Source of the DNA: an uncultured Planctomycetia bacterium
GTDB lineage: Bacteria; Planctomycetota; UBA8742; SKZP01; CAYZQB01
NCBI GenBank assembly: GCA_964480395.1
Contig: CAYZQB010000007.1
Span: 1-37,370 of the forward strand
DNA: 37,370 bases
Direction: 5' to 3'
A program made the translations under genes and the position numbers. The notes below the pieces were generated by a model. It saw only the letters and a program-made list of their open reading frames with translations, searched no databases and had not been told where the DNA came from. Positions 2,411 through 37,370 of this stretch are shown here, piece after piece (the stretch's first letter is position 1; every line of letters begins with the position of its first letter).

Positions 2411-4951
2411 ATGTACACAAGTGCAACAGCGACAGAAGTCGTCGTCAGCGTTCGCGATTTATACACCCATTTCAAAACTGCTGAGGGTATTGCACGTGCT
2501 GTCGATGGAGTCAGCTTCGATATTAAACAGGGAGAAACATTTGCAATTGTTGGCGAATCGGGTTGTGGCAAATCTGTAACTGCGTATTCGATTATGCAGC
2601 TTGTTCAGAAACCTGCAGGTTTTCATCCTCACGGTGAGATTATACTGAATAGCGAAAGTATCAAGAATTTTGATATCTTAAAGATGAATGAGAAAGAGAA
2701 GCGTGAGATGCGCGGTGGTGAAGTCGCCATGATATTCCAGGAACCTATGACTTCTCTTAATCCGGTTTTTACGATTGGGCATCAAATTTCCGAAGCTGTT
2801 GTGCTGCACCAGAATGTTTCATGGAAAGATGCATGGAATATCTCAATCGACATGATTCACAAAGTTGGCATTCCAGACCCTGAACAACGGGTCAAAGAAT
2901 ATCCGCACCAATTATCAGGAGGAATGAAGCAACGTGCTATGATTGCAATGGCACTTTCATGCAAGCCCTCACTTCTTATTGCTGATGAGCCGACAACCGC
3001 TCTTGACGTTACAATCCAGGCACAGATTCTAAGTTTGATGAAAGAGCTCCAGGAAGAAATGGGTATGAGCATCCTACTTATCACGCACGATCTCGGAGTT
3101 GTATGCGAGATGGCGGACAGAGTTGGTGTTATGTATGCCGGAAAAATAGTTGAAAAAGCGAGTAAGGAAGTTTTATTCTCGAATCCGCAACATCCTTACA
3201 GCTTGAAACTCTTCCAGTCATTGCCAGATATAGATAAAAAAGGACAACATTTAAATGTTATCAAGGGATTTGTGCCTAACGCTACAAAATTCCCAGATCG
3301 TTGCAGGTTCGCAGACAGATGCGACTTTATGTTTCATCCATGTCTTGATGATACATTAGAACCAAGACTTCTAAATATTGGTGTGGACGATGAACATCTT
3401 GTTGCATGCCATGGATTTGATGAAAACATTTCTGACAGACCGAAAATCGAGTTGAAAGAAATTGAAGCAATATTTGAAAAACCAACGTTTGAGGAATCAC
3501 CGGTTATTCTAGATGTTCGTAATCTTAAGCAGTATTTCCCGATTAAAGCACGAAAAATTTTCTTGAAAACAAAAATTAAAATATTTCTTGGAATACTGAA
3601 TATATTTGCCCTGGCAACAGCATTGTACGCATTATTATTAGACCAAAATGTAACAGCAATCACAATGGGAGCCGCATGCATACTCAGTTTTGGTGACGTA
3701 TTCTTAAAAACACGCAAAGGCGGGATGCTCTCGATTATTTCATATACATTGTTTTTAATTTTTGGTGTTTTATTCATGATAAACGTTGCAGGGATTGTTT
3801 TCTTCCCGCTTGTTTTCTTCTGGTTTATTATGCTTATGAACCTGTTGATGCCCGGAAGATTAAGCTTAAGAGCTGTCGATGACGTAGATCTCACAATACG
3901 TAAAGGTCATACGATGGCGTTGGTTGGAGAATCAGGCTGCGGCAAGACGACTATGGGTAAATCGATTATTCAGCTCAATAAAACGACGGCTGGTTCTGTA
4001 CGCTATGGTGGTAAGGAATTAACGAATCTTAAAGGTGAAAGTCTCAAGCCGTTCAGACAAAAGATGCAGATTATATTCCAGGATCCTTACGGTTCTTTGA
4101 ATCCGCGACAGATGATTGGTGAAATCATTGAAGAAGGTATGCTTGTACATGGTGTTGGCAAAACAAAAGAAGAACGAGAAGCGATTATCCGCGATGTCCT
4201 GCGTCATGTTAATATGGCACCTGAAATGATGACTCGGTATCCGCATGAGTTTTCTGGTGGTCAACGTCAGCGTATTGGTATTGCACGTGTTCTGGCGATT
4301 CAACCGGATTTCGTTGTTTGCGATGAACCAACCTCAGCACTTGATGTTTCAGTACAAGCACAGATATTAAACCTTTTGAATAAACTTCAGGACGAATTCG
4401 ATTTAACGTTCCTATTTATAACGCATGATCTACGTGTTGTTGAGTTTATTGCAGACCATGTTTCGGTCATGTATCTGGGTAGAATTGTTGAAGAAGGTAA
4501 GACAGAGGAAATCTTTACAAACCCGAAACACCCGTATACAAGAGCACTACTTACAGCGATTCCTGAGACTGACCCAAAATCCGGCTTTAAGAAGATTAAG
4601 CTTGAAGGTGATGTACCGTCTCCGATAAATCCTCCGCGAGGATGCCATTTTAACCCTAGATGTCAATATGCTATGCCGATTTGCAGAGCAGCATATCCTG
4701 GTACAACAGAAGAAACTATTACACACAAAGTGAGATGCTTCCTATATGGTATGGGTGAAATTGACATACCAGAAGAAGTTAAGTGGGAAGGTCGCAAACA
4801 GCTTTTAGATTGGGACGAAGAAAGAGCAAAAGTCAGACAAATTAAAGAAGACGCTGAAGATGATAGACGCTCAAAGATAAAAAACCACAAAAATAAGATT
4901 CAAGAAGAAAAGGACAAAAAGGACAACGATGTCAAAGACGAACACAAATAA
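2411..4951 (+). CDS. ABC transporter ATP-binding protein with duplicated Opp/Dpp-type ATPase domains (YejF/GsiA-like architecture), an internal hydrophobic insert and a charged C-terminal tail
   Basis: Two complete NBDs are present. Walker A is GESGCGKS and GESGCGKT; signatures are LSGGMKQR and FSGGQRQR; Walker B is [12 protein letters not shown] and [12 protein letters not shown]; ITHDL H-loops occur twice. Each NBD is followed by the Cys-rich Opp-type C-terminal segment ([15 protein letters not shown]; [15 protein letters not shown]). Confidence 0.9.
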
Positions 4952-21598: not shown

Positions 21599-21654
21599 AG
21601 GATAATGAGAGAAGAGCCTAAAATACTGTGGATTTTGGTAATACGGAGGTCATA

Positions 21655-23757
21655 ATGTCGATTCAGGATTTGAGGAATGTCGCATTTGTTGGACATGGTA
21701 ACTCAGGAAAAACTGCAACTGTGGAAGGATTGCTCTACACTGCGAAAGCTATTTCACGTTGGGGAAGAAGTGATGACAAGACTTCAATACTCGATTATCT
21801 TGATGACGAAAAAGATAAAGCTTATTCTATAAATCTTAAGATCGGTCGCCTGAAGCACAACAAGGTTGACATAAATGTAATTGATACTCCTGGCAAGCCG
21901 GATTTCCTTGGTGAAGCGGTTTCAGCATTGTATGCGTGCGATACAGCGGTTATTACAATCGCAGCTAATGCGGGTATTCAGGTTAATACTCGAAATGCTT
22001 GGAAAATCTCGGAAAAAGCTAATGTTGCAAAGGCAATTCTCATTACAAAAACCGATGCTGAAAACATCAGAGTCGAGGATGTGATTAAGCAGATTCAGAA
22101 TACCTTTGGCGACAAGTGCATCCCAATAACGTACCCAATCGGTGAAAGTGTGGATATGGTGGATGTAATCGATGTAATCAATCTACCTGAAAACGCGCCT
22201 GATGCTGCTGTGTCCTACAGAGAAACACTTGTTGAGAGATCAGTTGAAGCAGACGATGAAATAATGGAAAAATTCCTTGAAGAAATGGAAATCGATGAAG
22301 CAACTTTCAACAAGGTTTTGAAAAAAGCAATCACAATGGGTGTTGTTGTTCCGATTCTTTTTGTCGGAATGACAAAAGAAAAAGGTTATGACATTCTGCT
22401 TGATAAAATTGTCGAGCTTTTTCCGTCACCAGCAGATAATCTAGCGAAATTCAGCATATATCCTCTAGAACCAATGAAAGAATATATTAAAGCCAACGAA
22501 CTGGATATATTCAGCACTGTCATCACTGAAAAAACTGACATTCAAAAGCCAGAGCCAGAAACTATCGAATCTGCTGATGGTGATTTCCTTGCACAGGTCT
22601 TCAAATCAACAATTGACCCACAAACCGGAATACGAAACAGTTTTATCAGAGTTGTTCGCGGTGAAATGACAAGTGATGGTGCAATATACAACTGTTCAAC
22701 CGAAAAAATTGAAAAAGTAACGGGTTTCCTACATATCAGCGGTAAAGATACAAAAAGAATTGATAAAGCTGTTGCAGGCGATATTGTGGTTATCTCAAAA
22801 ATGGATTCCTTACATACTTGCACAACGATAACCGGTACGAACCATAAGATGCTGGAAGGATTTCCCTTTCCTCTTCCAACTGCTTCATTTGCTGTTCATC
22901 CGAAAACTCAAAAAGACGTTGATAAAGTCGGTGAAGCAATATCAAGAATTCGCGCGGAAGACCCAACTTTCGTTGACAGGATAGATCCAGTTACAAAAGA
23001 GCGAGTTATTGTCGGTCTCACTGACCTTCACTTGAATATTATGCTTGACCGCATGAAAAAACGCTCAAAAGTTGAAGTCGAGACAAGCTTACCCATAATT
23101 CCGTATAAAGAAACTATAACCGGTAAAGCTGCTGACAGCTATCGGCATAAGAAGCAGTCGGGTGGTGCTGGCGAATTCGGCGAGGTTCATATAGAAATCA
23201 GTCCGAGTGAACGTGGTGCCGGCTTTGAGTTCGAAAACGCAATTTTCGGTGGTTCAATTGACAGAGTTTTCATTCCTTCAGTTGAAAAAGGATTGAAAGA
23301 TCAGATGGCAAAAGGAGTTATTGTCGGTTTTCCTGTTGTTGATGTTCATGCACGACTATATGACGGGAAGACACATCCTGTTGACAGCAAGGACAGGGCA
23401 TTTCAGGTTGCTGCTCGCGAATGCTTCAAGAAGATTTTTCCGCATGCAAAACCAAAGCTTCTAGAGCCATATATGGAAATGGAAGTTCATATTCCAACTG
23501 AAAAAGTCGGCGACATTCTTGCGGACATCTCCGGTGCTCGCAGAGGGCGCGTTAACGATCAGATTACTGATGGTGATTTTGCAACAATTATGGCAGTTGC
23601 ACCACTTTCGGAGATTCAAACTTACAGCCAGAGTCTTCAGTCGATGACAGGCGGTGAAGGAACATTTACGATGAAATTTAGCAACTATGAAATAGTGCCT
23701 GAGAATATAACACAACAGATAATTGCAAAATATGCAAAAAAAGTTGAAGAAAAATAA
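21655..23757 (+). CDS. Elongation factor G paralog (EF-G-like translational GTPase)
   Basis: G1 is GHGNSGKT, G3 is DTPGKPDF and G4 is TKTD. The domain IV tip context is YDGKTHPVDSKDRAFQVAA. About 700 aa. Start ATG 21655 has GGAGG 5 nt upstream; the ORF is open from GTG 21628. Confidence 0.88.
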   Translation: MSIQDLRNVAFVGHGNSGKTATVEGLLYTAKAISRWGRSDDKTSILDYLDDEKDKAYSINLKIGRLKHNKVDINVIDTPGKPDFLGEAVSALYACDTAVITIAANAGIQVNTRNAWKISEKANVAKAILITKTDAENIRVEDVIKQIQNTFGDKCIPITYPIGESVDMVDVIDVINLPENAPDAAVSYRETLVERSVEADDEIMEKFLEEMEIDEATFNKVLKKAITMGVVVPILFVGMTKEKGYDILLDKIVELFPSPADNLAKFSIYPLEPMKEYIKANELDIFSTVITEKTDIQKPEPETIESADGDFLAQVFKSTIDPQTGIRNSFIRVVRGEMTSDGAIYNCSTEKIEKVTGFLHISGKDTKRIDKAVAGDIVVISKMDSLHTCTTITGTNHKMLEGFPFPLPTASFAVHPKTQKDVDKVGEAISRIRAEDPTFVDRIDPVTKERVIVGLTDLHLNIMLDRMKKRSKVEVETSLPIIPYKETITGKAADSYRHKKQSGGAGEFGEVHIEISPSERGAGFEFENAIFGGSIDRVFIPSVEKGLKDQMAKGVIVGFPVVDVHARLYDGKTHPVDSKDRAFQVAARECFKKIFPHAKPKLLEPYMEMEVHIPTEKVGDILADISGARRGRVNDQITDGDFATIMAVAPLSEIQTYSQSLQSMTGGEGTFTMKFSNYEIVPENITQQIIAKYAKKVEEK

Positions 23758-23861: not shown

Positions 23862-25910
23862 ATGGATAAAAAATTATTACAATTTATGACAGCAATTACG
23901 CTACGGAGAATCAGTCAGCTCAAGTATCGCAGTGTGATAAATGCACCAGATACAAATGATAATAATATAATCAGTATTTACGAAATAGCCGGTGAATTAT
24001 GTGAGGATTTTAAGGATGTTATCCTGCAGGAAGCACGGGAACTCGCTCAAACCAGTGCTGAAGACAAAAATCTTTCACCTGAAAAAATTGCTTTGATGCT
24101 CGCTGAGGCAATTCCACTTTATGCTGGCTACAACGACATAAAGGATAATTTTCCTGACAATTCGGAGATTACTAGAAAAGTACTGAGTATCAAAGTCGGT
24201 CATCCTGCTGATAAATCCGACTATTATTTCGCAATCATTCGGGATAATGCGAATAAAGACCCATTTGTACCCGTCGAAGAACGTATGTTGACGAAGCCAC
24301 TTGAATCAGATCTGAGTGATTTGTACGAGAAAGTTTATATTGATGCGAAAGCATTGATAAATCAGCTTAATATTTCGAATTTTAATCAAATTTTGACTCA
24401 ACTCATAGAAATGCTTATGCCAATTCCGATTAACTCCGGAACTGATACTTTTCTCTCGATGGGGAGTTATTTCCGTGCTGTTCTAATTATCGGTTGCTCG
24501 ATTTTAAACGAGATAAAATCGCATGGACCCGGAGTGATGCAATCCGATGAAAGTAATTTATGGGCGTTAACCAAGATTGAAATCGTAAAACTTGGCATTA
24601 ATGGAAACTTGCCGGGTAGTATTATAGAAGAATCCAGGGAATTTCAGGTTTTAAGGAAAGAATTATTCGATGCGATGAAAACAGATACCCTGATTATTGA
24701 AAACCACGAACTTAAATCAACACTACCGAATCATATCTACCTGCTTCACAATAAATCTTTTAGTGAAGAATTGACTCGGAAAATTAAACCTGCAGTAACA
24801 CATTGGTTTGCTCAAAATCGTGCTGCTACATGCGTTGCAAGCGTAGAATTAAACAAAAATGACCTTTCTGATACTAAAAAATTTGAAGAATGCCTGAAAA
24901 AAGTGGATTTGAAAGCACATCATGAAATTGTGCACAAAATTGCCTTAAATTCTTTTTCTCAACCCGTGAAAGAAAAATCTAATGCGGAAAATCTTAAGAA
25001 AACGAGTAAAATTAACCCGCCAGAACTTGTTCAAAAAGCAGCATCAGAAAGCAGAATACCGATCATGGGTATGCTTCTAATTAAACAGGAAACTCAGCCG
25101 GAGTTAATCATTAACCGTGGTGCTGGTTTGCCTTCAATTCTTTTCGCAAATGACAGATTCACTCATTTCTGGGAAAAAATTGTTCCTGATATCGCTGGGA
25201 AATACCGTTTTTCAACAAGTATGATACATCTTGAAAAGGGTGATGTATTAATTAAGAATAAATTGTCGAGACTTCTAAGTTTCACAAGGGAATTTTTCAA
25301 TCTATATTATGATTTTGGAATGCCTGTGAGCATCAGCGCAAGCATCACAATGAATCAAGAAGGAGATGATGGCAAGAACCTGTCAATGACACATCAAGGT
25401 TATGTGGATGCAAAAAACGCAGTTCGCCCAAAAATTAGGACAGATAACCAAAATATCAATCCTTTCAGCGGTTTCAAGGGCAGCATGCTTTCTCTTTGTT
25501 TATTTGAGAATACGTCAAAAAACACAATTCCGAGTGAAGACCTGAAAATATTCTTCGAAATGATGCGTCAAATTGGATTACTTGCGGGTTATAGAGTCAA
25601 TAATGAAGATATTGTCCCACTTTCTAGTCAGACCAAACCTGAAATATTCAATATAGTACACTCAATTACGAATAAAATAAAGAATGATAAAGGTTTCAAC
25701 TGGCAATCAGTTTTGTATTATATGCTAACAGAGAAATTTAGTGATGAAGCTGATGCAAAAACTATAAATCTCAACGAACAAGCTGTAAACGACCTTTTAC
25801 ATACCTTAAGATATAATCGATGGCAGAACATTCAAAGACTGATGTCAAAACCTGCTCATCTTTATCTGAATATTTTGGCAAAATGGTTGAAAGTATTAGA
25901 ATTAACTTAA
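23862..25910 (+). CDS. Large hypothetical protein in the Cas10 (type III large subunit) position; possibly a highly degenerate Cas10 lacking HD, zinc-finger and GGDD motifs
   Basis: It lies immediately 5' of a csm2-csm3-csm4-csm5-like series, with its stop 18 nt before the next start. Length is 682 aa. The only Cas10-like trace I see is MIHLEKGDVLI (aa 454-464) followed about 30 aa later by PVSISASITM. This resembles the Palm2 pattern hhY-GGDD-hhh ... T-h-S-A-G-h with GGDD degraded to EKGD. There is no N-terminal HD and no CxxC pairs. The C-terminal ~130 aa look helical. Confidence 0.4.
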   Translation: MDKKLLQFMTAITLRRISQLKYRSVINAPDTNDNNIISIYEIAGELCEDFKDVILQEARELAQTSAEDKNLSPEKIALMLAEAIPLYAGYNDIKDNFPDNSEITRKVLSIKVGHPADKSDYYFAIIRDNANKDPFVPVEERMLTKPLESDLSDLYEKVYIDAKALINQLNISNFNQILTQLIEMLMPIPINSGTDTFLSMGSYFRAVLIIGCSILNEIKSHGPGVMQSDESNLWALTKIEIVKLGINGNLPGSIIEESREFQVLRKELFDAMKTDTLIIENHELKSTLPNHIYLLHNKSFSEELTRKIKPAVTHWFAQNRAATCVASVELNKNDLSDTKKFEECLKKVDLKAHHEIVHKIALNSFSQPVKEKSNAENLKKTSKINPPELVQKAASESRIPIMGMLLIKQETQPELIINRGAGLPSILFANDRFTHFWEKIVPDIAGKYRFSTSMIHLEKGDVLIKNKLSRLLSFTREFFNLYYDFGMPVSISASITMNQEGDDGKNLSMTHQGYVDAKNAVRPKIRTDNQNINPFSGFKGSMLSLCLFENTSKNTIPSEDLKIFFEMMRQIGLLAGYRVNNEDIVPLSSQTKPEIFNIVHSITNKIKNDKGFNWQSVLYYMLTEKFSDEADAKTINLNEQAVNDLLHTLRYNRWQNIQRLMSKPAHLYLNILAKWLKVLELT

Positions 25911-25927: not shown

Positions 25928-26854
25928 ATGTTTGCAGAAGAAATTAACGAAGATATGAAGGAAAGAAAAGATACTTCAGCTGAGGAGATAAAAGAAGAAC
26001 CTGAAACTATTGACGAAAATAAACCTGTAAAATCAGCGAAAAATACTGAAACTAATGCTGAAGACAAAGTTGAAGCATTAAATGATAAAGCTGATGCTGA
26101 TGTTGTTAAGGACGAAAAGCATGATGAAAAACCTGTTGACAACTCAAAATCAGTAAAATCAGAAAAAATTACTAAGGATAAAAAGGATAAATTACTAGTT
26201 GAGACAGAGATACAAAAAGAATTACAGGATATTAAAACCTCGAAAACTCAAAAGGATTCTATTAAAATTAAGGATTCTGCTCAGGAAGAATCTAAAGAAT
26301 CGATCCTTACTAAAAAGGAAATTAAACTTGATGAACCGCGTAAAAGCAAGACGGAATCAGGTAGGTTCGAGAAAAGAATAAGTGAGCGAAAAAGAATAGA
26401 CAGACGCGGACTTCGTCAGGGAATCAGACGTGAAGAATATCGTAATAAAAGCTATGATGCACTTCCTGCACGAGATCAGAACATTAAAGAGATAATAAGC
26501 TCTGGAAATCCCGATTTAATCAACAGAACCGCTGAAGATTACGCAAAAACATGGGGTGACAGACCACCGTGGATTAAAAACCGTTTTTCTTCATTCCAGA
26601 TACGACCGATTATTTCAAAAATCTTGAAAATCAGAAAAAAAACCTTCGCATACGAAAACGTAAACGAGCTGAAACTTCTGAAACCATTGTTAGCATATAT
26701 TGCACGCAGGTATCACGACGACGATCTTTATGAATTTTCGCGAATAATAAGATATGCGATTGATGATGTCGGAGACGACCCGCAAAAGTTCAAATATTTT
26801 TGCTCGTTCTTTGATTCTCTGCTTCTGTATTTCAGGGCTAACGGTGGTAAATAA
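25928..26854 (+). CDS. csm2: Csm2-type Cas11 small subunit with a ~180-aa Lys/Glu/Asp-rich N-terminal extension
   Basis: The C-terminal ~125 aa carry Csm2 family hallmarks as I recall them: SSFQIRPIISKILKI, ELKLLKPLLAYIARR and KFKYFCSFFDSLLLYFRANG. Start 25928 is preceded by AAGGAG (25917-25922). The N-terminal part is low-complexity charged sequence ending in an Arg-rich patch (RFEKRISERKRIDRRGLRQGIRREEYR). Confidence 0.75.
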   Translation: MFAEEINEDMKERKDTSAEEIKEEPETIDENKPVKSAKNTETNAEDKVEALNDKADADVVKDEKHDEKPVDNSKSVKSEKITKDKKDKLLVETEIQKELQDIKTSKTQKDSIKIKDSAQEESKESILTKKEIKLDEPRKSKTESGRFEKRISERKRIDRRGLRQGIRREEYRNKSYDALPARDQNIKEIISSGNPDLINRTAEDYAKTWGDRPPWIKNRFSSFQIRPIISKILKIRKKTFAYENVNELKLLKPLLAYIARRYHDDDLYEFSRIIRYAIDDVGDDPQKFKYFCSFFDSLLLYFRANGGK

Positions 26855-26885
26855 CATTAAATCCAAAACATAAGTGAGATTGATT

Positions 26886-27644
26886 ATGCAATTAGACAAA
26901 CGAATTTTCCTAAAAGGTTACATTATTGCTGAAACAGGTTTGTTAATCGGTGGAACTGACACAGGACAAGGACTGAGCGGAGCAGACAAGGTTGTTTTAC
27001 GCAATCCTATCGATGAAAGACCGTTTATCCCTGGTTCGTCCATAAAAGGCAAAATGAGAATGCTATTGGATCAGCTTGCTGGGATTTATTCTGAAACCGA
27101 TGAGAAAAAAACTGCCAGTGAGATTCACAAAAAGATCGCACGATTGCTTGGAAAAATCAGCGATGATAGAGCAGAAAGTCCCAGAATGCTTATTATCCGG
27201 GATGCTAATCTTGTGAACCACAAGTATCTTGAAGCACAAGAGCATCTTGATCTGCCTTACACTGAACTAAAAACCGAAGTTTCAATCGATAGAATCACCG
27301 CGAAAGCCACGCCACATTGCTATGAAAGAGTGCCTTCAGGAGCAGTATTTTGTTTCGAGATGATTTTAAGCACTTACGATTTCGGCAAATCCAAGGACGA
27401 TGCAAAACAATATGTCGAGTTGATATTAACTGCATTATTGCTTCTGCAGGACGATTATCTGGGAGCAAACGGCTCGCGCGGTTACGGTAAAGTAAGATTT
27501 CACGTGAATGATATAAAAATGCGCGACAAAGAAGGTTATATCAAGAATGCTGAGCCAATTGATTTCACTGAAGTCAACGTACCAGCTGAGCTGAAACTCG
27601 AACAACCGGTTCTTGATGAAATTAATTCGCAGATTTCTAAGTAA
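26886..27644 (+). CDS. csm3: Csm3-family RAMP (Cas7 backbone subunit)
   Basis: The N-terminal stretch is GLLIGGTDTGQGLSGADKVVLRNPIDERPFIPGSSIKGKMRMLL, which holds the G-rich loop, the catalytic-Asp context and the IPGSS-KG-R motif. The C-terminal motif is LGANGSRGYGKVRF. Confidence 0.88.
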   Translation: MQLDKRIFLKGYIIAETGLLIGGTDTGQGLSGADKVVLRNPIDERPFIPGSSIKGKMRMLLDQLAGIYSETDEKKTASEIHKKIARLLGKISDDRAESPRMLIIRDANLVNHKYLEAQEHLDLPYTELKTEVSIDRITAKATPHCYERVPSGAVFCFEMILSTYDFGKSKDDAKQYVELILTALLLLQDDYLGANGSRGYGKVRFHVNDIKMRDKEGYIKNAEPIDFTEVNVPAELKLEQPVLDEINSQISK

Positions 27645-27662: not shown

Positions 27663-28517
27663 GTGAGTGATTACGATTTTATCGAATATAAATTGAGTTT
27701 TAAACAATCATTAAATCTGCCAATTTCTTCGTCAAACGAGATTTATCCTGTCTTATATTCCGACTGGTTGTATAAAGTGTTTGAAAGCGGATGGAAAAGA
27801 TTGTTTAGTGAGGATTTTCCGTACAATGACATCCGAATCACTTCCGGATTTCCATACTGCAAGGATTATTCACATGTTCTTTTCTATATACCGGAAAAAT
27901 TAGAATATTTGTCCGTTGCACGTGATGCACTTGCTGCTGGTGAGATTATACTTGGCTCAAATTGCTGGCGTTTTTTCTCGCGCCCTAGGGCAGAATTCAA
28001 CAAAGATACTGCACGCAGGGAAAAACGCTTTACAACAGTTGAAATATATTTCAAGAAAAATTCTGGAATCTGGTTTGGGTCGCGATTTACTAACTCGACA
28101 AGTCAGAAGAAATTCGAGAGTGTAATTCGGTTTATCGGTGATGAGGGCATCGGCGGCGGTCGTTCAGTAGGTTATGGCGGGTTTGTGCTTTCAAGCATCG
28201 AGGAAATATCAGTTTACAAAGAGGAACACTCTCTAATGCTTTCACTTTCACGCTTCAAAATACCCGAATCTTCAATTTCAGAAGACCTTTTTTGCGAAAT
28301 ACGACCGATGACAATTGGATTGAAATCTACAAAAACTGGAAAAAAGATTAATTTCTTGGTATTTGGCGAAGGCTCACTTATGAATGTGAGTGATAAAGTT
28401 GATTATTTATATGCTGGTGAATTTATCGGAGAAGACAGCAAAAAAGCAAAAGATTACTCGAATCGTGCAGCATTGCTTTTTGCTATGCCAGTACCAGCGA
28501 AATTGCAGACTTACTGA
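27663..28517 (+). CDS. csm4: Csm4-family RAMP (Cas5-like subunit)
   Basis: N-terminal YKLSFKQSLNLP...VLYSDWLYKVFESGW matches the Csm4 pattern (beta-strand, then sD-T-L-F-S-A-L-like helix). The C-terminal glycine-rich loop is IGDEGIGGGRSVGYGGF. GTG start has GAGG 8 nt upstream. Confidence 0.75.
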   Translation: MSDYDFIEYKLSFKQSLNLPISSSNEIYPVLYSDWLYKVFESGWKRLFSEDFPYNDIRITSGFPYCKDYSHVLFYIPEKLEYLSVARDALAAGEIILGSNCWRFFSRPRAEFNKDTARREKRFTTVEIYFKKNSGIWFGSRFTNSTSQKKFESVIRFIGDEGIGGGRSVGYGGFVLSSIEEISVYKEEHSLMLSLSRFKIPESSISEDLFCEIRPMTIGLKSTKTGKKINFLVFGEGSLMNVSDKVDYLYAGEFIGEDSKKAKDYSNRAALLFAMPVPAKLQTY

Positions 28518-28623: not shown

Positions 28624-29820
28624 ATGTTTACATATACAAAGAAATTGAAAAGTATAATCGAAGCGGAAGTTGAGGTACTAACACCTTTGCATATCAGCAG
28701 CGGGAAGAGTTTTCAACCTTCTGATGTTGTGCGTGATCCAGAATCATTTTTTGTTATTAACGAACGAAAACTTATTGAGAAATTTGCCGATAACGATGAA
28801 GTATTGAAAGAGCTTGAGAATCCACGCCTGATTTTGCAAAGATTCTTCGAAGAGCATGAAGATTTGTATGTTGATGATTATATGCTTTACGAACTTGAAG
28901 CACGGACGCAGAAAACAGTGCGTTATGGCATGCCATTAAACAGTTTCGCTCGCATAGGAGCTGAGTTTACGCCCTACATTCCTGGCTCATCTCTGAAAGG
29001 AGCTCTTCTTTCAGGTATTTTGTGGGATTTGAACCAGATAGCAAGAGGAGATAGCGAGAAATGGACCAGCGATATTTTTGTGTCTGCTCTTAAGAGGTGT
29101 TTTCATCACGGTAATGACATAAATATTTACGATAATGAATTTATAAGTGCAATTTTAGGTAAAGATAGCACAAATTTTGCTCAAAAAGCGTTCCGTATTC
29201 TGGATGCTAGTTTGAAACCTGAAGATATTGGTGTTTTCGCAAATGCAATGTTTCATTGTGATAAACCAAACGGCAGCGGATATCATTGGAGTGGAATTCA
29301 GAAACTGCCAACGAATGATTTTACGAAGATAAGCTATGAATTAATTGAAGCAATAAAGCCTGGAACAAAATTCAATGTTAAGATAGTTGTTGACAATGTT
29401 GCTCTTAAAAATGTTAAATTCGGGGAATTAAGCTCGAAACTTAGGCATGGTAAATCCTACGAATTTGGTGATATTGCAAGTGCCATATTCGAGTTAGCTT
29501 ATAACACTCTTTATTATGAAAAAGAATTTTATAGCAAGACAGGTCATCGAAAACTTATTAATGCATCAGAAGATTTTTATAATTATGCAAACTCAATTGC
29601 AGAAGATCCGGAAAGCAACGAGATTATGCTCCGTCTTGGATGGGGTATGAACTATCACGGAGTGACTGGTTTTTTATGGCAGGACGATATTGTGAAAAAA
29701 CTGAGATTACCTATGCAAAATTATCATGAATATCCTTACCCGAAAAGCAGGCGGATTGTATTTGATGGTCAGAACGAAGTAGGTACACCAGGCTGGGTTA
29801 AAATGCGCATCAATTTTTAA
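28624..29820 (+). CDS. csm5: Csm5-family RAMP (Cas7-like capping subunit)
   Basis: VEVLTPLHISSGKSFQPSDVV near the N-terminus, YIPGSSLKGALLSG, and RLGWGMNYHGVTG near the C-terminus; 398 aa. Confidence 0.8.
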   Translation: MFTYTKKLKSIIEAEVEVLTPLHISSGKSFQPSDVVRDPESFFVINERKLIEKFADNDEVLKELENPRLILQRFFEEHEDLYVDDYMLYELEARTQKTVRYGMPLNSFARIGAEFTPYIPGSSLKGALLSGILWDLNQIARGDSEKWTSDIFVSALKRCFHHGNDINIYDNEFISAILGKDSTNFAQKAFRILDASLKPEDIGVFANAMFHCDKPNGSGYHWSGIQKLPTNDFTKISYELIEAIKPGTKFNVKIVVDNVALKNVKFGELSSKLRHGKSYEFGDIASAIFELAYNTLYYEKEFYSKTGHRKLINASEDFYNYANSIAEDPESNEIMLRLGWGMNYHGVTGFLWQDDIVKKLRLPMQNYHEYPYPKSRRIVFDGQNEVGTPGWVKMRINF

Positions 29821-31838: not shown

Positions 31839-31917
31839 CGGGGCGTAGCGCAGTCTGGTTTAGCGCGTCTGAATGGGGTTCAGAAGGTCGAAGGTTCGAA
31901 TCCTTTCGCCCCGACCA
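31839..31917 (+). tRNA. tRNA-Pro (anticodon GGG), CCA encoded
   Basis: Manual cloverleaf. The acceptor CGGGGCG pairs with CGCCCCG, giving the C1:G72 pair plus A73 typical of bacterial tRNA-Pro. The D stem is GCGC/GCGC. The anticodon stem is TCTGA/TCAGA with loop A-T-GGG-G-T. The T arm is GAAGG-TTCGAAT-CCTTT. Confidence 0.9.
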
Positions 31918-31960: not shown

Positions 31961-32176
31961 ATTGGTTACAACCTGAATTACAACCCGTTGGAACGGATTT
32001 GAATCATTCTAAAATGAAAGATGCAGCAATTTCAATGCTTGCAGCGCGCACCATCTCGCAGCTTCTTGATATACAATGAAATAAGATTAACTAAGTGTGT
32101 ATATGTATAGATATGATGTACTAAAAAAGTACATTGTGATTTAGGAACAGTTTTACGTCAGAAATATTTACATTTT

Positions 32177-32233
32177 ACAGAAATAACAGAAATAACAGAA
32201 ATTATCGAGAATAACAGAATTAATAGAAATAAA
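32177..32233. repeat. 9-bp tandem repeat (ACAGAAATA: two perfect copies, a third with one mismatch, about three degenerate) in an AT-rich 520-bp intergenic region
   Basis: The sequence reads acagaaata acagaaata acagaaatt atcgagaat aacagaatt aatagaaat. Confidence 0.8.
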
Positions 32234-32484
32234 CGTACAAAGAAGGTTTGAAGACAGTAATATATACAGTTCAATAATAATGAGTTAGCCAAATACTGAA
32301 TTCAAGCTAATTATGTGCGATTGGATTTGCTATAAATATGAAATATTGAAAATATTAATCAAAAATCTTGAACTTTTTTCTGAAAAGCAGGTTTATCACA
32401 TATGTAACAATTCGATTTAAATATTATCTCATTATTTTTTATATTTCAGATATATTGTGATTTTGTTATTGAAATATAATTGGT

Positions 32485-33969
32485 CTATTTTTTTGCTGTT
32501 TCAATTGCCTTCATCAGCTTTTTCAAAATAAATATTAATGTTCTAAAATATTCCGCAAGTTCAACAAATTCCTTCAGCTCTGCATTATTTAAAGGATTGC
32601 TCTGTGATCGATTAAACAACGCAAGATACCTATCTTTTTTGTCTGCATTTTCATTTTCTAATTCTTTTACTAACTCAATAAGATTCATGCGCATTTTGCT
32701 AGAGTCAAAAGGTTTATTGAGAATTCCAGCCAGTTTTTTCTGCAGCTCAATAATAACGACCTTTTCAGGTGGCATCATTTTTTTAAGCTTTTTCCATGTT
32801 TTGTGCAAAAATCTCGCAGAAATATCCAGTGTTTTCGTATCTGCAATGTGCTTTTTAAGTTCTTCTGTGATATCTAAATCAGAAAATCCAAGTAAAGCAT
32901 TGAATTTCTTAAACTCCGATTCAAGATAATTATTCCTTGATTTCATATCATCGAATTTTTTAATTTCATCTTCAAATTCATCTAACCTTGGAATTAAGAT
33001 TGCATTTTCCTGCAGCGTCAATTCAAGTCGCTTCTTATGATCAGTAAATTTTTTAAAAAGTGCCTTCAAATCTGCAACAGCTTCATTATACTCTTTTACA
33101 AGCCGTTCCTTCTCTGACTTCCAATTTTCGAATGAGCCGTACATATGGATAAACTGCCCTAAATCGGCAACCATTGCTTTTTGGTCGTCTGTCAATTCCG
33201 TGTCGGGTTGCAATTCACCAGCATCAAACAAAATTTTAGCACCAACTTTGATAAAACTTCGAAACTGATGCACCGTTTCAATCTCGAAACTTGGTAGCGT
33301 ATTCTCCTCTATCACCTCGCGCCACAAAGATTCGTTCGCACCATCAAAATCAATTGTGTTTTTTAATTTCTCATTTTCCATAGCATCTGAATCTGGGGAT
33401 TCAGCATATGCTTCGACATAAGTTTCCGACAAATCGGTTTTCAGTTTATCATTTTCAGATTCGTTTGATTGCAACTCGGTAGTTATTGTTTCGATTGCGT
33501 TCGAGTCATTAGGAACTGGTTCATCTGTTACATGCACTTTATCGATCGTATAATCAGTTATGGACTCGACAAGATCTGACTCGACAGGATCTGGTTCATC
33601 TGTTACTTGCACTTTATCGATCGTATAATCAGTTACGGACTCGACAAGATCTGACTCGACAGGGTCTGGTTCATCAGTTACCTGCTCTTTATTGATCGTA
33701 TAATCAGTTACGGATTCGACAGGTTCAAACTCGACAGCTTCCGGCACATCGGCTTCTTGTTTGTTAACAATTGGTTCAAAAGTTACTGATTCGACAACTA
33801 CAGACTCATCGGCATCCGAATCGATAGATTCCGGTTCGTCATTATCCGAATCAACAACTTCCGGTACAATGGCTTCTGACTCGTCTTCGTCTTGCTCGAT
33901 AGCCTCTGGCACGAGAATTTCCTGTTCATCATTCTTGTTTTCAAAATCTTCATAATATGTTGAAGACAT
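32485..33969 (-). CDS. Hypothetical protein: highly acidic repeat-containing N-terminal half, coiled-coil C-terminal half
   Basis: 494-aa ORF. The N-terminus is rich in D/E/V/P with three 25-aa tandem repeats (VESVTDYTIDKVQVTDEPDPVESDL). The C-terminal half is heptad-like and K/E-rich. No family is recognised. Confidence 0.65.
   Translation of the reverse strand: MSSTYYEDFENKNDEQEILVPEAIEQDEDESEAIVPEVVDSDNDEPESIDSDADESVVVESVTFEPIVNKQEADVPEAVEFEPVESVTDYTINKEQVTDEPDPVESDLVESVTDYTIDKVQVTDEPDPVESDLVESITDYTIDKVHVTDEPVPNDSNAIETITTELQSNESENDKLKTDLSETYVEAYAESPDSDAMENEKLKNTIDFDGANESLWREVIEENTLPSFEIETVHQFRSFIKVGAKILFDAGELQPDTELTDDQKAMVADLGQFIHMYGSFENWKSEKERLVKEYNEAVADLKALFKKFTDHKKRLELTLQENAILIPRLDEFEDEIKKFDDMKSRNNYLESEFKKFNALLGFSDLDITEELKKHIADTKTLDISARFLHKTWKKLKKMMPPEKVVIIELQKKLAGILNKPFDSSKMRMNLIELVKELENENADKKDRYLALFNRSQSNPLNNAELKEFVELAEYFRTLIFILKKLMKAIETAKK
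33516..33740. repeat. 75-bp tandem repeat x3 within the acidic protein gene (in frame, 25 aa each)
   Basis: Units start at 33516, 33591 and 33666 (CTGGTTCATC...). Units 1 and 2 differ at only a few positions; unit 3 is more diverged. Confidence 0.9.
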
Positions 33970-34326
33970 TAACGCCTCCTAAAAAATAAGGCTTCAGCTT
34001 ACCGAAACCTAAACATTGTCTCAGCTTAATAACTACAAATTGATTATAAGTCAGGGATTCTGTATTTCAAGACAAAAAGAAGAGGGAGTGTTGGTTTAAA
34101 ATCATTGATTATTATACAAAAACTCTTCGACATTGCATAGCAAACAAAATCATAAGCTTTTTTAATATCAATCACTTCATGATAAGTTATTTCATAAATG
34201 AAAAAGACCTTAAAATGAATAATCTATGCACTTCAGAAAGAATTTTTTGAAACAATTATTATCTTGCTTCGTCTAAAATTCAGTTTCATAAATAAAAAAA
34301 ATTATCAAGTTACAAAAGGGGATATT

Positions 34327-37300
34327 ATGGCAGCATTAAAATCTTTTATAACACGGAGAAAAAGCTGGTTGCTTGCATCAATGTTTATACTGCTTTTATC
34401 CTTCATTTCATTAAATTTCATCTTTGCAGAAGATGATTCACAGGATTTGTTTGAAAAAGCTGAAAAGTTTTTCAACGAGAAATCTTTCGCAAAAGCACTC
34501 GCAAATTTTAATGAAGCACTCACAAATTCCGGTGCAGACTTCACCAAACGACAGCTAACACGCTTACGCATCGCACAATGTCAACATCAACTCAATAAAT
34601 ACAATGAGATGCTGAAGTCTTACGATGAATTAATCAAAGATTATCCAAGCACACCGTTGACAGTTGAAGTTTTAACTGAATTCGCAGATAACTTGATTCG
34701 ATTGCCACATTATTATTATAAAAAAGATGACCAGATAAGCTGGGGGAAGTGGATTAGCGGTGGATATTATAATTATGTCCGTGAAAGTAACATTAAAAAA
34801 GCTGAGAAAAATATTCTTGCTGCTAAAGACTTGCAGATAAAGCATCTGCTTGACTCAACCGCTGAACTCAATGCTGATACACGCTGGCACTGGCGCGAAC
34901 GTCTCGCAGATCTGCACTTGAAGGAAGCTGGAATATACGAAGTCTACGAGAATTATCAGCGTAATCAGTGGAATTATACTTGGGAAAACCGTTCTTTCTG
35001 GGAACGCATCAACCCAGCAGACCCGGATGGTCCAAAAGAAATCAGCCAGTCACGGAAAATACCCTCGGGTGAAGGCTGGCAAAAGATTGAGAATCGAACA
35101 TTTCATGTTTACAAGCAAGCGGACACAATCATCGAAGCATACAATCAAGCGTATATTCGATATTTTTCGCTTTATAAGGATTATAAAAAGATTCTTGATG
35201 CGGAATATGCTAAAGATAAGGAAAATAAGACTGCAATTGAAATCGCTGAGAATCGCGTCGTTGGATACCTTGAACGTTCTGGTGAAGCGCATTACCGGAT
35301 TGCATCTTATCTTGCACGTGGTTTAGATGCTACACCTGAGTATTTACAGCTGGTTTATGGAGAAATTAACTGGCAAAAATATAACGTGCTGCCAAAATGT
35401 GATGAATTCGTTGAAGCATACCCAAAACACTTCCGCGCACCAGAAATCCTCTTGCTCAAGGCAAATCAACAGTATATCAATCAGGATTTTGTCAATGCTG
35501 TCAGCACACTTGATGTGCTTATAAAATCTTATGCTGATACACCATGGGCAAAGACTGCAAAAACCCAAAAAGATGAAATCCTGCGTCCACGACTCGATGT
35601 AAATGCATCATTAAATGGGATAACGGGGCAGGAAATCAATCTCTCAGCAAGAATCCGCAATATTAAATCACTCAAAGTTGAAATATATAAATTTGATCTC
35701 GCACATTACATAGAGAAATCACTTTATTTGACATCGTATGATATGCGTCTGAATTCAGTTTCAACACTACTTGACAAAATTACCGACAAAGATGAATACG
35801 ATTACCGGTACACGCAACCCATGGTCAAAGATTTAGATGGATTCAAGGATTATCTCACCTTCATTAGTACTAAGAATCATAAGACCAAGGATATTAGCAA
35901 GTACAGGTATCATAATGAATCAATCGCAAGCGGACTTACGGAAAATGGTTTTTATCTTGTGAGAATCAGCGGTGAGAATATGTTTGGTGCGAATTTCGTC
36001 CAAATATCAACTAAAACGCTGGTTTCAAGAGCATTCAGTGACAGACGTCAGTATTACCTCGCTGACCGTGAGACAGGCATGCCAATCATGGGCAAGAATG
36101 AACTTATCATAAAGGAATACCGCTATAAACCTCATACCAATTACGTGAAGGTTTTCCGTAGCAAACTTCATGAAGAAGAAGGTAATGGCTGGCATGAGTA
36201 CCGTGATCTTCCGCCAAAACACAGCATTCAAAACCTTACGGCGATTGCAAAATGTGAAGATGGCGATGTTATAATGCACACTAACCAGTATGGACAATAT
36301 TGGTGGAACATGGCGTTCAGGGACTCGGAAATCAAAGGTTTTACCGTTACTGACCGCCCAATTTACAGACCTAAACAGACAATTCACTTTTCAAGCATTC
36401 TACGCTCTAGAAAATCGGGTTCGTACGGATTTGCAGCTCCAAAAAAGGGTAGTGCAATTTGGCTAACAATGTGGGACAGCAAAGGCACAAAGCTCATTGA
36501 TCAGCGTTATGAACTTGACGAATTTGGGCAGATTCATGGGCAGTACACGCTTGGCGAGGAACCAGCACTTGGGTCATACAGCATTTATATGCGCTGGGAT
36601 GCTGGAGAATACTCCCGTTTTAACTCATCTTCACATTATTTCAGTGTTGAAGAATATCGAAAACCAGAGTTTGCGGTGAGCATCGGTACAGATCAAAACA
36701 GAATGAAAGTCGGCAGCTTGGTGAAAGCGAAGATTGCAGGGAATTATTACTTTGGCGCACCAGTTGCCAATGGTGAAGTAAAATACAAGGTTTTCCGCAA
36801 GGAATATGTGCATAAATACAGATTTCCCGGTGCTTTTGAATGGCTATATAGCTATGTTGGCATGTGGCATCATCGCCTGTCAGATCATTACACACGAAAT
36901 GCAGGCTGGCAACGTGAGCTCGTAACCGAAGGTTCTGGTCGACTTGATGAAAATGGGAATTTTGAAATTTCTTTCAATGCAGGTCCTGAAATTCTGCTAC
37001 GAGGACCAGAAGATCCCGCAGTTAAGCAGCTTTTGACAAATGATTCAGACCTGAAACGGTTCTTCGAGAAAGATTATGCATACGAAATCACTGCTGATGT
37101 TACTGATTCCGCCAGACGATTGATTTCCGGAAGTGGCTCAATAAAAGTTACTAGGCAGTCCTTTAGCATGTTCTCCAATTATCGAAACAATTTCTATCGA
37201 CCTAAAAGCAAGGTTGAGATTGAGCTGCGGTCTCTCACACCTTCAGGCATTGCAATTTCCGTCGAAGGCGGTCTGCACATTGAGGAAGTCAAACGTTATT

Positions 37301-37370
37301 TCTTGGCAAATGAGCAGGGACAACGAGAAATCAAGGAAGACGTTGTTCGCAGCGTAGAAAAAATTCCTTT
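34327..37370 (+). CDS. Alpha-2-macroglobulin family protein (MG-domain) with signal peptide and TPR-like N-terminal region, 3'-partial; absent from the supplied ORF track
   Basis: I translated frame 1 codon by codon from ATG 34327 to the window end and found no stop. The signal peptide is SWLLASMFILLLSFISLNFIFA. MG-domain hallmarks are FTVTDRPIYRPKQTIHFSSILR and HYFSVEEYRKPEFAVSI, followed by AKIAGNYYFGAPVANGEVKYKV. Confidence 0.8.
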   Translation, partial: MAALKSFITRRKSWLLASMFILLLSFISLNFIFAEDDSQDLFEKAEKFFNEKSFAKALANFNEALTNSGADFTKRQLTRLRIAQCQHQLNKYNEMLKSYDELIKDYPSTPLTVEVLTEFADNLIRLPHYYYKKDDQISWGKWISGGYYNYVRESNIKKAEKNILAAKDLQIKHLLDSTAELNADTRWHWRERLADLHLKEAGIYEVYENYQRNQWNYTWENRSFWERINPADPDGPKEISQSRKIPSGEGWQKIENRTFHVYKQADTIIEAYNQAYIRYFSLYKDYKKILDAEYAKDKENKTAIEIAENRVVGYLERSGEAHYRIASYLARGLDATPEYLQLVYGEINWQKYNVLPKCDEFVEAYPKHFRAPEILLLKANQQYINQDFVNAVSTLDVLIKSYADTPWAKTAKTQKDEILRPRLDVNASLNGITGQEINLSARIRNIKSLKVEIYKFDLAHYIEKSLYLTSYDMRLNSVSTLLDKITDKDEYDYRYTQPMVKDLDGFKDYLTFISTKNHKTKDISKYRYHNESIASGLTENGFYLVRISGENMFGANFVQISTKTLVSRAFSDRRQYYLADRETGMPIMGKNELIIKEYRYKPHTNYVKVFRSKLHEEEGNGWHEYRDLPPKHSIQNLTAIAKCEDGDVIMHTNQYGQYWWNMAFRDSEIKGFTVTDRPIYRPKQTIHFSSILRSRKSGSYGFAAPKKGSAIWLTMWDSKGTKLIDQRYELDEFGQIHGQYTLGEEPALGSYSIYMRWDAGEYSRFNSSSHYFSVEEYRKPEFAVSIGTDQNRMKVGSLVKAKIAGNYYFGAPVANGEVKYKVFRKEYVHKYRFPGAFEWLYSYVGMWHHRLSDHYTRNAGWQRELVTEGSGRLDENGNFEISFNAGPEILLRGPEDPAVKQLLTNDSDLKRFFEKDYAYEITADVTDSARRLISGSGSIKVTRQSFSMFSNYRNNFYRPKSKVEIELRSLTPSGIAISVEGGLHIEEVKRYFLANEQGQREIKEDVVRSVEKIP

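Follow-up and report, generated by a model that had tools for sequence, protein, structure and literature searches.

A probable catalytically dead Cas10/Csm1 derivative at the head of a III-A-derived csm operon in an uncultured Planctomycetia bacterium

Contig CAYZQB010000007.1 of an uncultured Planctomycetia bacterium (GenBank assembly GCA_964480395.1), which is 37,370 bp in length with a G+C content of 37.5% and is referred to in its entirety as the window, carries a gene for a 682-aa protein followed directly, on the same strand, by four genes that pass the curated cut-offs for the III-A equivalogs csm2, csm3, csm4 and csm5. The protein therefore sits in a real Cas10 position, as had been claimed in a first-pass annotation of the DNA, and the order of the operon is the same in the related loci L001, L002, L005, L006 and L007. 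Comparison with Cas10/Csm1 indicates that it is most likely a true, extremely diverged homolog, which is probably a catalytically dead scaffold in a III-A-derived module that only cleaves RNA. The gene and its regions, assigned by profile-profile alignment (hhalign) unless stated otherwise, are as follows.

23862-25910, plus strand: large-subunit gene, an intact open reading frame (ORF) of 682 codons plus stop; extremely diverged Cas10/Csm1 derivative, probably catalytically dead
23862-24191, plus strand: vestigial HD-domain region, aa 1-110, with the HD dyad replaced by R15-R16 (nt 23904-23909) and ADRxASG by AEAIPL
24456-24503, plus strand: SMGSYFRAVLIIGCSI, aa 199-214, which corresponds to SLFDHxRxTAAxAxCLY in Cas10
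24537-24896, plus strand: Palm1-like beta-alpha-beta-beta-alpha-beta unit, aa 226-345, with the fold pattern also present in the low-confidence full-length AlphaFold2 model
24897-25061, plus strand: low-complexity linker, aa 346-400 (55 aa), a gap in the alignment in place of the Cas10 D2/four-Cys zinc-finger domain
25062-25421, plus strand: Palm2-like domain with a dead active site, aa 401-520, assigned by hhalign, the AlphaFold core and Foldseek
25083-25091, plus strand: K408-Q-E410, counterpart of the Palm2 DxD
25233-25244, plus strand: E458-K-G-D461, counterpart of the Palm2 GGDD
within 25332-25346, plus strand: S492-A-S494, counterpart of SAG
within the Palm2-like domain, plus strand: A517-K518, counterpart of the Cas10 AK
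25359-25370, plus strand: decoy "EGDD", aa 500-503, part of a loop that follows beta4 and not of the Palm2 hairpin
25422-25907, plus strand: D4-like C-terminal domain of helices, aa 521-682, with the strongest conservation in the protein (dN/dS 0.07)

The protein begins with MDKKLLQFMTAITL. A script run over its 682 residues located the earliest His at residue 114, no "HD" dipeptide anywhere, and Cys at 47, 212, 324, 344 and 546, with no CxxC or any C-x(1-5)-C pair. These results bear out the first-pass annotation, which had reported no H..HD motif in the first 100 aa and five isolated Cys without CxxC, and had correctly quoted the segment aa 454-497 with its EKGD (aa 458-461). The gene is functional and under strong purifying selection, with a ratio of nonsynonymous to synonymous substitution rates (dN/dS) against a 76%-identical orthologue of 0.135/1.08 = 0.125 overall and of 0.07-0.19 by domain (HD-remnant 0.13, Palm2-like 0.11, D4-like 0.07). 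The least conserved segment is the linker, with 21% identity to the 49%-identical homolog P0003.

Relatives of the protein are rare. Pfam, NCBIfam and PADLOC gave no match to it at E ≤ 1, the unmatched curated Cas10 models being Pfam PF22335 (Cas10-Cmr2_palm2) and PF18211 (Csm1_B), NCBIfam TIGR02578 and PADLOC Cas10. Neither phmmer against all PDB chains nor hmmsearch of the PDB with a six-sequence family profile returned a Cas10-related match. A word-seeded search of 5.8 billion clusters retrieved three proteins, these being the protein itself, the 76%-identical relative and the 49%-identical one, and a profile search of 1.84 billion representative proteins added two fragments and nothing more (five relatives in all, two of them fragments). 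The 76%-identical relative is listed as a "hypothetical protein" in a metagenome-assembled genome (MAG) named "Planctomycetes bacterium"; NCBI gives the homologous large subunit this label while the Csm3 of the same MAG is named correctly. No long contigs of the family were found in scans of genome, metagenome and viral contig collections (two each).

Searches with Csm3 sorted its relatives into three groups, of which the nearest family has 60-100% identity and a GC-rich Planctomycetota sister clade 43-48%, with canonical III-A Csm3 coming next. The sister-clade contigs L006 and L007, whose large subunits were reached through their Csm3 neighbors, encode large subunits of 743 and 677 aa, neither with a Pfam match, followed by long Csm2-like genes and Csm3. 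These large subunits align over their full length with those of the AT-rich clade, to which the window belongs, and hhalign between the two clades gave a probability of 92% and an E-value of 5e-7 over 622 columns. The only match of the L007 large subunit among 18,950 NCBIfam models is to Csm1 (TIGR02578, E 0.03, 13 bits); this covers the SLRDH region and is colinear with Csm1, though far under the cut-off of 170. Apart from this one, the homologs gave no match to the curated Cas10 models either. The next-closest Csm3 neighbors, L008 and L009, have an ordinary Cas10 of 840 and 859 aa, respectively, with the Pfam domains Csm1_B and Cas10-Cmr2_palm2, and a Csm2 of 136 aa. One CARF protein is present in L008, and two CARF proteins along with Cas6, Cas1 and Cas2 in L009.

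Homology to Cas10 emerged when a family alignment including L006 and L007 was compared by hhalign with an alignment of eight Csm1 proteins (L008, L009 and six annotated plasmid-borne Cas10/Csm1). The match has a probability of 84.5%, an E-value of 6.9e-6 and a score of 56.8, pairing residues 1-344 of the query with 1-361 of Cas10, against scores of 15 for the reversed Cas10 template and 11-21 for eight column-shuffled templates. With a permissive posterior threshold, a single colinear path runs from HD to D4, pairing query 1-673 with Cas10 1-786 over 605 columns. The C-terminal halves alone also match (E 1.1e-3, score 32.7) with the EKGD, SAS, AK and D4 motifs in register, and the best match of the AT-rich clade alone to Cas10 pairs Palm2 with Palm2 (score 35).

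The alignment also gives the state of each Cas10 motif. In the N-terminal region, AGLFHDIGKFAERA of canonical Cas10 is paired with AITLRRISQLKYRS of the window, and the HD dyad becomes RR (AGLFHDIGK versus AITLRRISQ), a change present in all five full-length family members. Further on, ADRIAAG corresponds to AEAIPLY, with ADALAAG being kept in the GC-rich homologs, and SLFEHSRLTAAISCCLY pairs with SMGSYFRAVLIIGCSI, where L007 still reads SLRDHVETAVALALAL. Thus, the earlier statement that the protein has no HD is correct for the catalytic residues, but the scaffold of the HD domain appears to be kept. Within Palm1, FLLxGDISGIQ pairs with LTKIEI..., LRGRSF with LRKELF, and GGKFYVL with PNHIYLL (Cas10 and window, respectively). 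The Cys-rich CxxC...CxxC middle of Csm1 (template ~440-560) falls in gaps opposite the linker, in agreement with the reported lack of a zinc finger.

In Palm2, RLGILRMDVDNLG of Cas10 stands opposite IMGMLLIKQETQP of the window, with DxD most likely having become KxE, as judged from an alignment in which the placement of the strand varies between two runs. The GGDD motif is replaced by EKGD (YSGGDDLF versus HLEKGDVL) and LSAGI corresponds to ISASI; the fragment P0004 keeps PISAGM. This is the Palm2 register that the first-pass annotation had proposed and that hhalign found independently. What had been called a vestigial Palm2 trace does mark the position of the former motif, but EKGD itself is not a retained trace, as its counterparts in the homologs are EKGE, GLGE and DYCE, with no conserved Gly or acidic residue in the GC-rich clade. 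In D4, MVYALSR pairs with LYYMLTE, and LGLLSRWLEL with LNILAKWLKVL. In the family alignment, the two clades have no invariant Asp, Glu or His in common, and neither an intact HD nor GGDD emerged from the alignment of orthologues that had been suggested as a check.

Two AlphaFold2 models were generated, one of the full-length protein from three sequences and one of aa 395-682 from four. In the latter, the Palm2 core has a predicted local distance difference test (pLDDT) score of 70-78 and forms a beta-alpha-beta-beta-alpha-beta fold (beta 402-409, alpha 423-447, beta 454-456, beta 461-467, alpha 468-484 and beta 491-497). EKGD is placed at the turn of the beta2-beta3 hairpin, the place of GGDD in palm cyclases. 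A Foldseek search of 350,542 PDB chains with the C-terminal model ranked first, with weak E-values, the Csm1 of L. lactis (6xn7_A, 2e-3), that of E. italicus (9g9c_A) and the chain 9asi_A, with adenylyl cyclases of class III and the Cmr2 of P. furiosus (4doz) ranking next. For the poor full-length model, the top five matches were all Csm1/Cmr2 (6ifu_A, E 3.7e-3), and no competing non-Cas10 fold was seen among the matches of either model. The structural comparison that had been recommended for this protein therefore points to Csm1/Cmr2 with both models, but with weak E-values and models of low confidence, and these matches are supporting rather than decisive for Cas10 homology.

The four partner genes of the large subunit are listed below.

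25928-26854, plus strand: csm2/cas11-like gene (Pfam PF03750, 6.5e-12, aa 253-343 of a long ORF, the Csm2 domain being C-terminal)
26874-27644, plus strand: csm3 (Cas7; TIGR02582, 3.5e-52)
26985-26987, plus strand: csm3 catalytic Asp, D38 (D34 should translation begin at M5, 26886)
27663-28517, plus strand: csm4 (Cas5), diverged (TIGR01903, 4e-17)
28624-29820, plus strand: csm5 (TIGR01899, 4.7e-18; PADLOC Csm5, 9.4e-19)

The csm2 ORF formally opens at 25820, overlapping the large-subunit gene by 91 nt; this start is probably spurious, with homologs in L001 and L002 suggesting a true start at 25928 (MFAxE). At 308-344 aa, the Csm2-like protein is more than twice the usual length of ~136 aa. Its N-terminal extension of ~215 aa has a long acidic low-complexity part and then an Arg-rich stretch (GRFEKR...ERKRIDRRGLRQGIRREEYR), with an insert, WGDRPPWIKNRFS (WGxRPPWxKNRFS pattern), ahead of the Csm2 domain. 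Both the extension and the insert are shared with the GC-rich clade, where they occur with RGD/RGDRGD repeats. Residue D38 of Csm3 aligns with D33 of S. thermophilus Csm3 (6ifn_F), the established catalytic residue, and 14 of 15 sequences from the family and the sister clade retain this Asp. Between the Csm3 of the window and its counterparts in L008 and L009, identity is 42-43%. For csm4, the word-seeded search of 5.8 billion clusters returned just four proteins.

A number of other sequences were encountered in these searches. The 190-aa protein P0005 of the representative library matches the N-terminal HD-remnant of the family over residues 10-119 (E 6.7e-28), with the rest resembling, on reading its sequence, a tRNA-binding domain of the EMAP/CsaA type; this could reflect chimeric assembly, truncation of the gene or a genuine fusion. 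The sister-clade locus L003 (1-6491) looks degraded: its Csm3 has Ser in place of the catalytic Asp, csm4 and csm5 are absent and the long Csm2 is present. The 372-aa protein upstream of its csm2 was considered as a large subunit and found to be unrelated. Between csm2 and csm3 of L003 there is also a direct repeat of 30 nt (2202-2231, 2261-2290), which contains a hairpin. The MAG contig L016 was rejected as a family member, being an unrelated III-A locus, in which a III-A-like operon has a Cas10 ORF (138-1388) of just 416 aa with Palm2 and D4, intact DVDDLG, GGDD and SAG, and a match to Pfam PF22335 at 8.6e-34. This may be a minimal or split Cas10, or one with a mis-called start near the contig end.

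No CRISPR array was found in the 37,370-bp contig, to which all negative results on gene context refer unless otherwise stated, and seven related short loci likewise yielded no array. Among the contig's ORFs and in its Pfam scans there was no cas6, cas1, cas2 or CARF gene, and no gene for a cyclic oligoadenylate (cOA)-dependent effector (Csm6/Csx1) or cOA sensor. Two ORF-poor regions were considered as sites of an array and discarded. The first, at 31.9-32.5 kb, has just a 9-nt microsatellite, ACAGAAATA (~6 copies, 32173-32235, not CRISPR-like), within an AT-rich intergenic region of ~570 nt downstream of tRNA-Pro(GGG) (31839-31917), the single Rfam match on the contig. The second, at 34-37 kb, is occupied by an ORF of 1050 aa (about 34220-37370, plus strand) that runs off the 3′ end of the contig. 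A promoter and terminator scan gave results at chance level.

The operon is flanked by housekeeping genes. Directly upstream, ~100 nt from the large-subunit gene and on the same strand, is a gene for a 709-aa paralogue of elongation factor G (EF-G) (21628-23757, plus strand), and adk and rsgA are found downstream in convergent orientation, with metK, a sigma factor and a CHASE2 adenylate cyclase further off on the contig. The EF-G paralogue is immediately upstream in all three full-length AT-rich family contigs (the window, L001 1-1120 and L002 1-747), is ~92% identical between the window and L001, and is not a neighbor in the GC-rich clade. On a contig from the sample of the 49%-identical member, adk and rsgA come after csm2 to csm5, which matches the arrangement in the window. 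The same synteny of EF-G, operon and adk-rsgA down to 49% large-subunit identity implies that the module stayed at one chromosomal site. Elsewhere in the window, an ORF at 32485-33969 (minus strand) contains three 75-nt tandem repeats (33481-33797, 72-100% identical), which translate into an acidic repeat, VESVTDYTIDKVQVTDEPDPVESDL; the 494-aa product has no Pfam match. The translation of an 846-aa protein (2411-4951, plus strand) reads as two halves resembling oligopeptide-type ABC-transporter ATPases, separated by a hydrophobic membrane-like insert at roughly aa 385-470.

The protein is thus most likely a Cas10 whose domain order of HD-like helical N-terminus, Palm1, Palm2 and D4 helical bundle has been kept, with the HD dyad changed to Arg-Arg, the four-Cys D2 reduced to a short variable linker, and the DxD and GGDD of the cyclase site apparently changed to KxE and EKGD. 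With all of these hallmark motifs lost, the remnant should be unable to cut DNA or to make cOA or SAM-AMP. As selection on the gene has been kept despite this, the complex probably only binds and cuts RNA. In the likely arrangement, the remnant and Csm4 would cap the 5′ end of a Csm2-Csm3-Csm4-Csm5 ribonucleoprotein, with the remnant as its large-subunit scaffold, and the sole enzymatic output left would be guide-dependent RNA cleavage by Csm3, which has its catalytic Asp. Since the contig has no array or cas6, the guide RNA would have to come from elsewhere in the genome, acting in trans, or be made or matured by host RNases. There are parallels for both: most III-B, III-C, III-E and III-F loci have no adjacent array and rely on CRISPR RNAs (crRNAs) supplied in trans (PMC12669027, legend of Extended Data Fig. 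2), and crRNA maturation by host RNases occurs in some Synechocystis systems (PMC12464536).

A number of results weigh against this interpretation. No sequence-to-profile method detects Cas10 in the window protein, and the profile search of 1.84 billion representatives brings back the family alone. Each clade by itself matches Cas10 weakly (E 3e-3 and 5e-3), and the Palm2 beta1 strand is placed differently in two hhalign runs. Both AlphaFold2 models are poor, with a mean pLDDT of 37 for the full-length protein and 50 for aa 395-682, and no Foldseek match reaches an E-value of 1e-3 or better, with TM-scores being low. Furthermore, it is not obvious why a protein that is purely a scaffold would have so strongly conserved an HD-remnant, with an invariant RR.

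It is conceivable, if unlikely, that the module has been exapted, with the Cas10 remnant and Csm2-5 having been domesticated to serve the host, for instance in RNA regulation, surveillance or quality control, instead of immunity. The guide would then be non-CRISPR or supplied in trans, the Arg-rich Cas11 extension would be put to use, the surfaces of the HD-remnant (RR) and D4 would have taken on a new binding role, and inheritance would be vertical. Such a history would fit the absence of array, cas6, adaptation and CARF genes across 37 kb, and the flanks made up of housekeeping genes (EF-G paralogue, adk, rsgA, metK) and not a defence island. It would also accord with the conserved synteny of EF-G, operon and adk-rsgA, the strongly purifying selection, the absence of relatives in the viral contig collection scans, and the long acidic and Arg-rich Csm2 extension common to both clades. 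However, the missing array is weak evidence, both because most III-B, III-C, III-E and III-F loci likewise have no array adjacent to them and because the search covered one contig of the MAG. Moreover, the EF-G neighbor is not shared by the GC-rich clade, and no candidate for a non-CRISPR guide was seen. If exaptation has taken place, the locus would be the equivalent, derived from type III, of CRISPR effectors exapted elsewhere, and a case could be made for a new subtype.

Cas7-11 activates Csx29, and by analogy the binding of a target could reshape the Cas10 remnant (the HD-remnant with its RR, or D4) or the extended Cas11 and so activate an unlinked partner. This new signaling route would give a role to the RR found in all full-length family members and to the HD-remnant and D4, which are the best conserved regions (dN/dS 0.13 and 0.07), seemingly beyond the need of a passive spacer. 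It is nevertheless improbable, as no locus examined has a conserved additional gene beside the operon and the two clades do not share a single invariant Asp, Glu or His.

That an unrelated protein was recruited to the large-subunit slot, with its likeness to Cas10 convergent or due to chance, had been the other option in the first-pass annotation, next to a Cas10 remnant. The failure of HMM, PDB sequence and large-scale profile searches to find Cas10 would agree with this. However, the colinear profile-profile alignment extends over all domains far above its controls, Cas10-specific motifs survive in the GC-rich homologs, where L007 matches TIGR02578, and the top structural matches of two separate models are Csm1/Cmr2. 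The remnant is therefore favored and such a recruitment is very doubtful. Least credible of all is a Palm2 still active with non-canonical residues such as the EGDD of aa 500-503, which is a variant listed for presumably active cyclases (PMC11229360) and whose spacing to a downstream FSG resembles, on reading the sequence, that from GGDD to SAG, but which is a decoy because it lies after beta4 in the model and is conserved in no clade member beyond P0002 (EGGV in P0003, EGAD in P0004, AGDA in L006, SGVS in L007), and which has no upstream DxD equivalent in either register, clashes with the downstream AK and D4, the AK fitting the primary register only, and has no cOA-sensing effector encoded nearby.

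The catalytically dead scaffold in an RNA-cleaving module is accordingly the preferred explanation. The novelty of the locus lies in a III-A-derived lineage that unites a triple-motif-dead Cas10 escaping all profiles, a much longer Cas11, no linked array, cas6 or effector, and a stable housekeeping site. It adds a III-A-derived case to the reductive series of III-G, III-H, III-I, III-E and VII, one in which Cas10 would survive purely as architecture under strong purifying selection despite the loss of HD, zinc finger and cyclase site. Annotation pipelines will miss or mis-type such loci, as the large subunit is invisible to the standard Cas10 models. If it cleaves RNA only, the complex would be a natural minimal multi-subunit RNA-targeting effector without collateral signaling, and the system makes it possible to test which Cas10 parts assembly by itself requires. 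With neither array nor cas6, and in so stable a housekeeping setting, the origin of the guide comes into question.

Among known systems, canonical III-A Cas10/Csm1 (S. thermophilus 6ifn_A, L. lactis 6xn7_A, L008 and L009) is likewise encoded by the first gene of a csm2-csm3-csm4-csm5 operon, has the same HD-Palm1-Palm2-D4 order, colinear by hhalign, and provides the best Foldseek matches. It differs in size (840-859 aa against 682 aa in the window) and in having the HD dyad, the zinc-finger/D2 domain and the cyclase motifs, where the window has RR, no such domain, and KxE and EKGD. In addition, the window large subunit is undetected by PF22335, PF18211 and TIGR02578, its Csm2 is more than twice as long, and its locus is without the Cas6, CARF effectors and Cas1/2 carried by L008 and/or L009.

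The III-G and III-H subtypes resemble the window in their reductive evolution, inactivated Palm and absence of cOA-sensor genes and of an adaptation module, with III-G loci also having no arrays. However, their HD is apparently active and their Cas7 catalytic Asp lost, for which they are predicted to target DNA, whereas the window shows the reverse, a dead HD and a kept Cas7 Asp. Neither the Csx26 of III-G nor the Cas11-Cas10 fusion of III-H is found in the window, where csm2 is a separate gene.

The cyclase-dead Cas10s of III-C and III-F also have no cyclase motif and no known effectors (Hoikkala et al., 2024, PMC11229360). In contrast to the Csm-type window, III-C has Cmr-like genes and a Cas10 that is still caught by Cas10 profiles. 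A recognizable HD is present in just half of III-C Cas10s (Hoikkala et al., 2024, PMC11229360), so that about half of these have neither HD nor cyclase motif, and "double-dead" Cas10s do exist. Overall, HD is found in about 39% of Cas10s, with 437 having HD, 1028 the cyclase motif and 34% both, of 1113 loci (PMC11229360); by our own arithmetic from these totals, ~26 loci, or 2-3% of Cas10s, would have neither. It had been supposed in the first-pass annotation that losing both would be unusual, as III-C and III-F keep HD. The double loss is indeed uncommon but has precedents in III-C and in the III-I remnant. Synechocystis III-Dv was discounted as another, as it retains GGDD and makes cOA (PMC11026444).

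By description, the window protein can also be compared with other large subunits regarded as Cas10-derived, which belong to other CRISPR types whose Cas7 and Cas5 partners are different. The Cas10-remnant domain of type VII Cas14 is one of these (PMC12669027). Type I Cas8 and type IV Csf1 are two more. In all three, the subunit has been reduced to a structural part with the enzymatic sites of Cas10 lost, as would be the case in the window. Conceptually, the closest system is III-I (Makarova et al., 2025, PMC12669027), whose Cas10 remnant is also extremely diverged, with no detectable sequence similarity to Cas10, being recognized just through more sensitive comparison, and with the cyclase lost, and for which RNA-only cleavage is likewise predicted through conserved Cas7 aspartates. 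In III-I, however, the N-terminal cyclase/palm domain is absent and a fused, III-D-derived Cas7-11i is present, whereas the window large subunit has kept both palm-like units and is accompanied by separate III-A-type Csm2-5 proteins.

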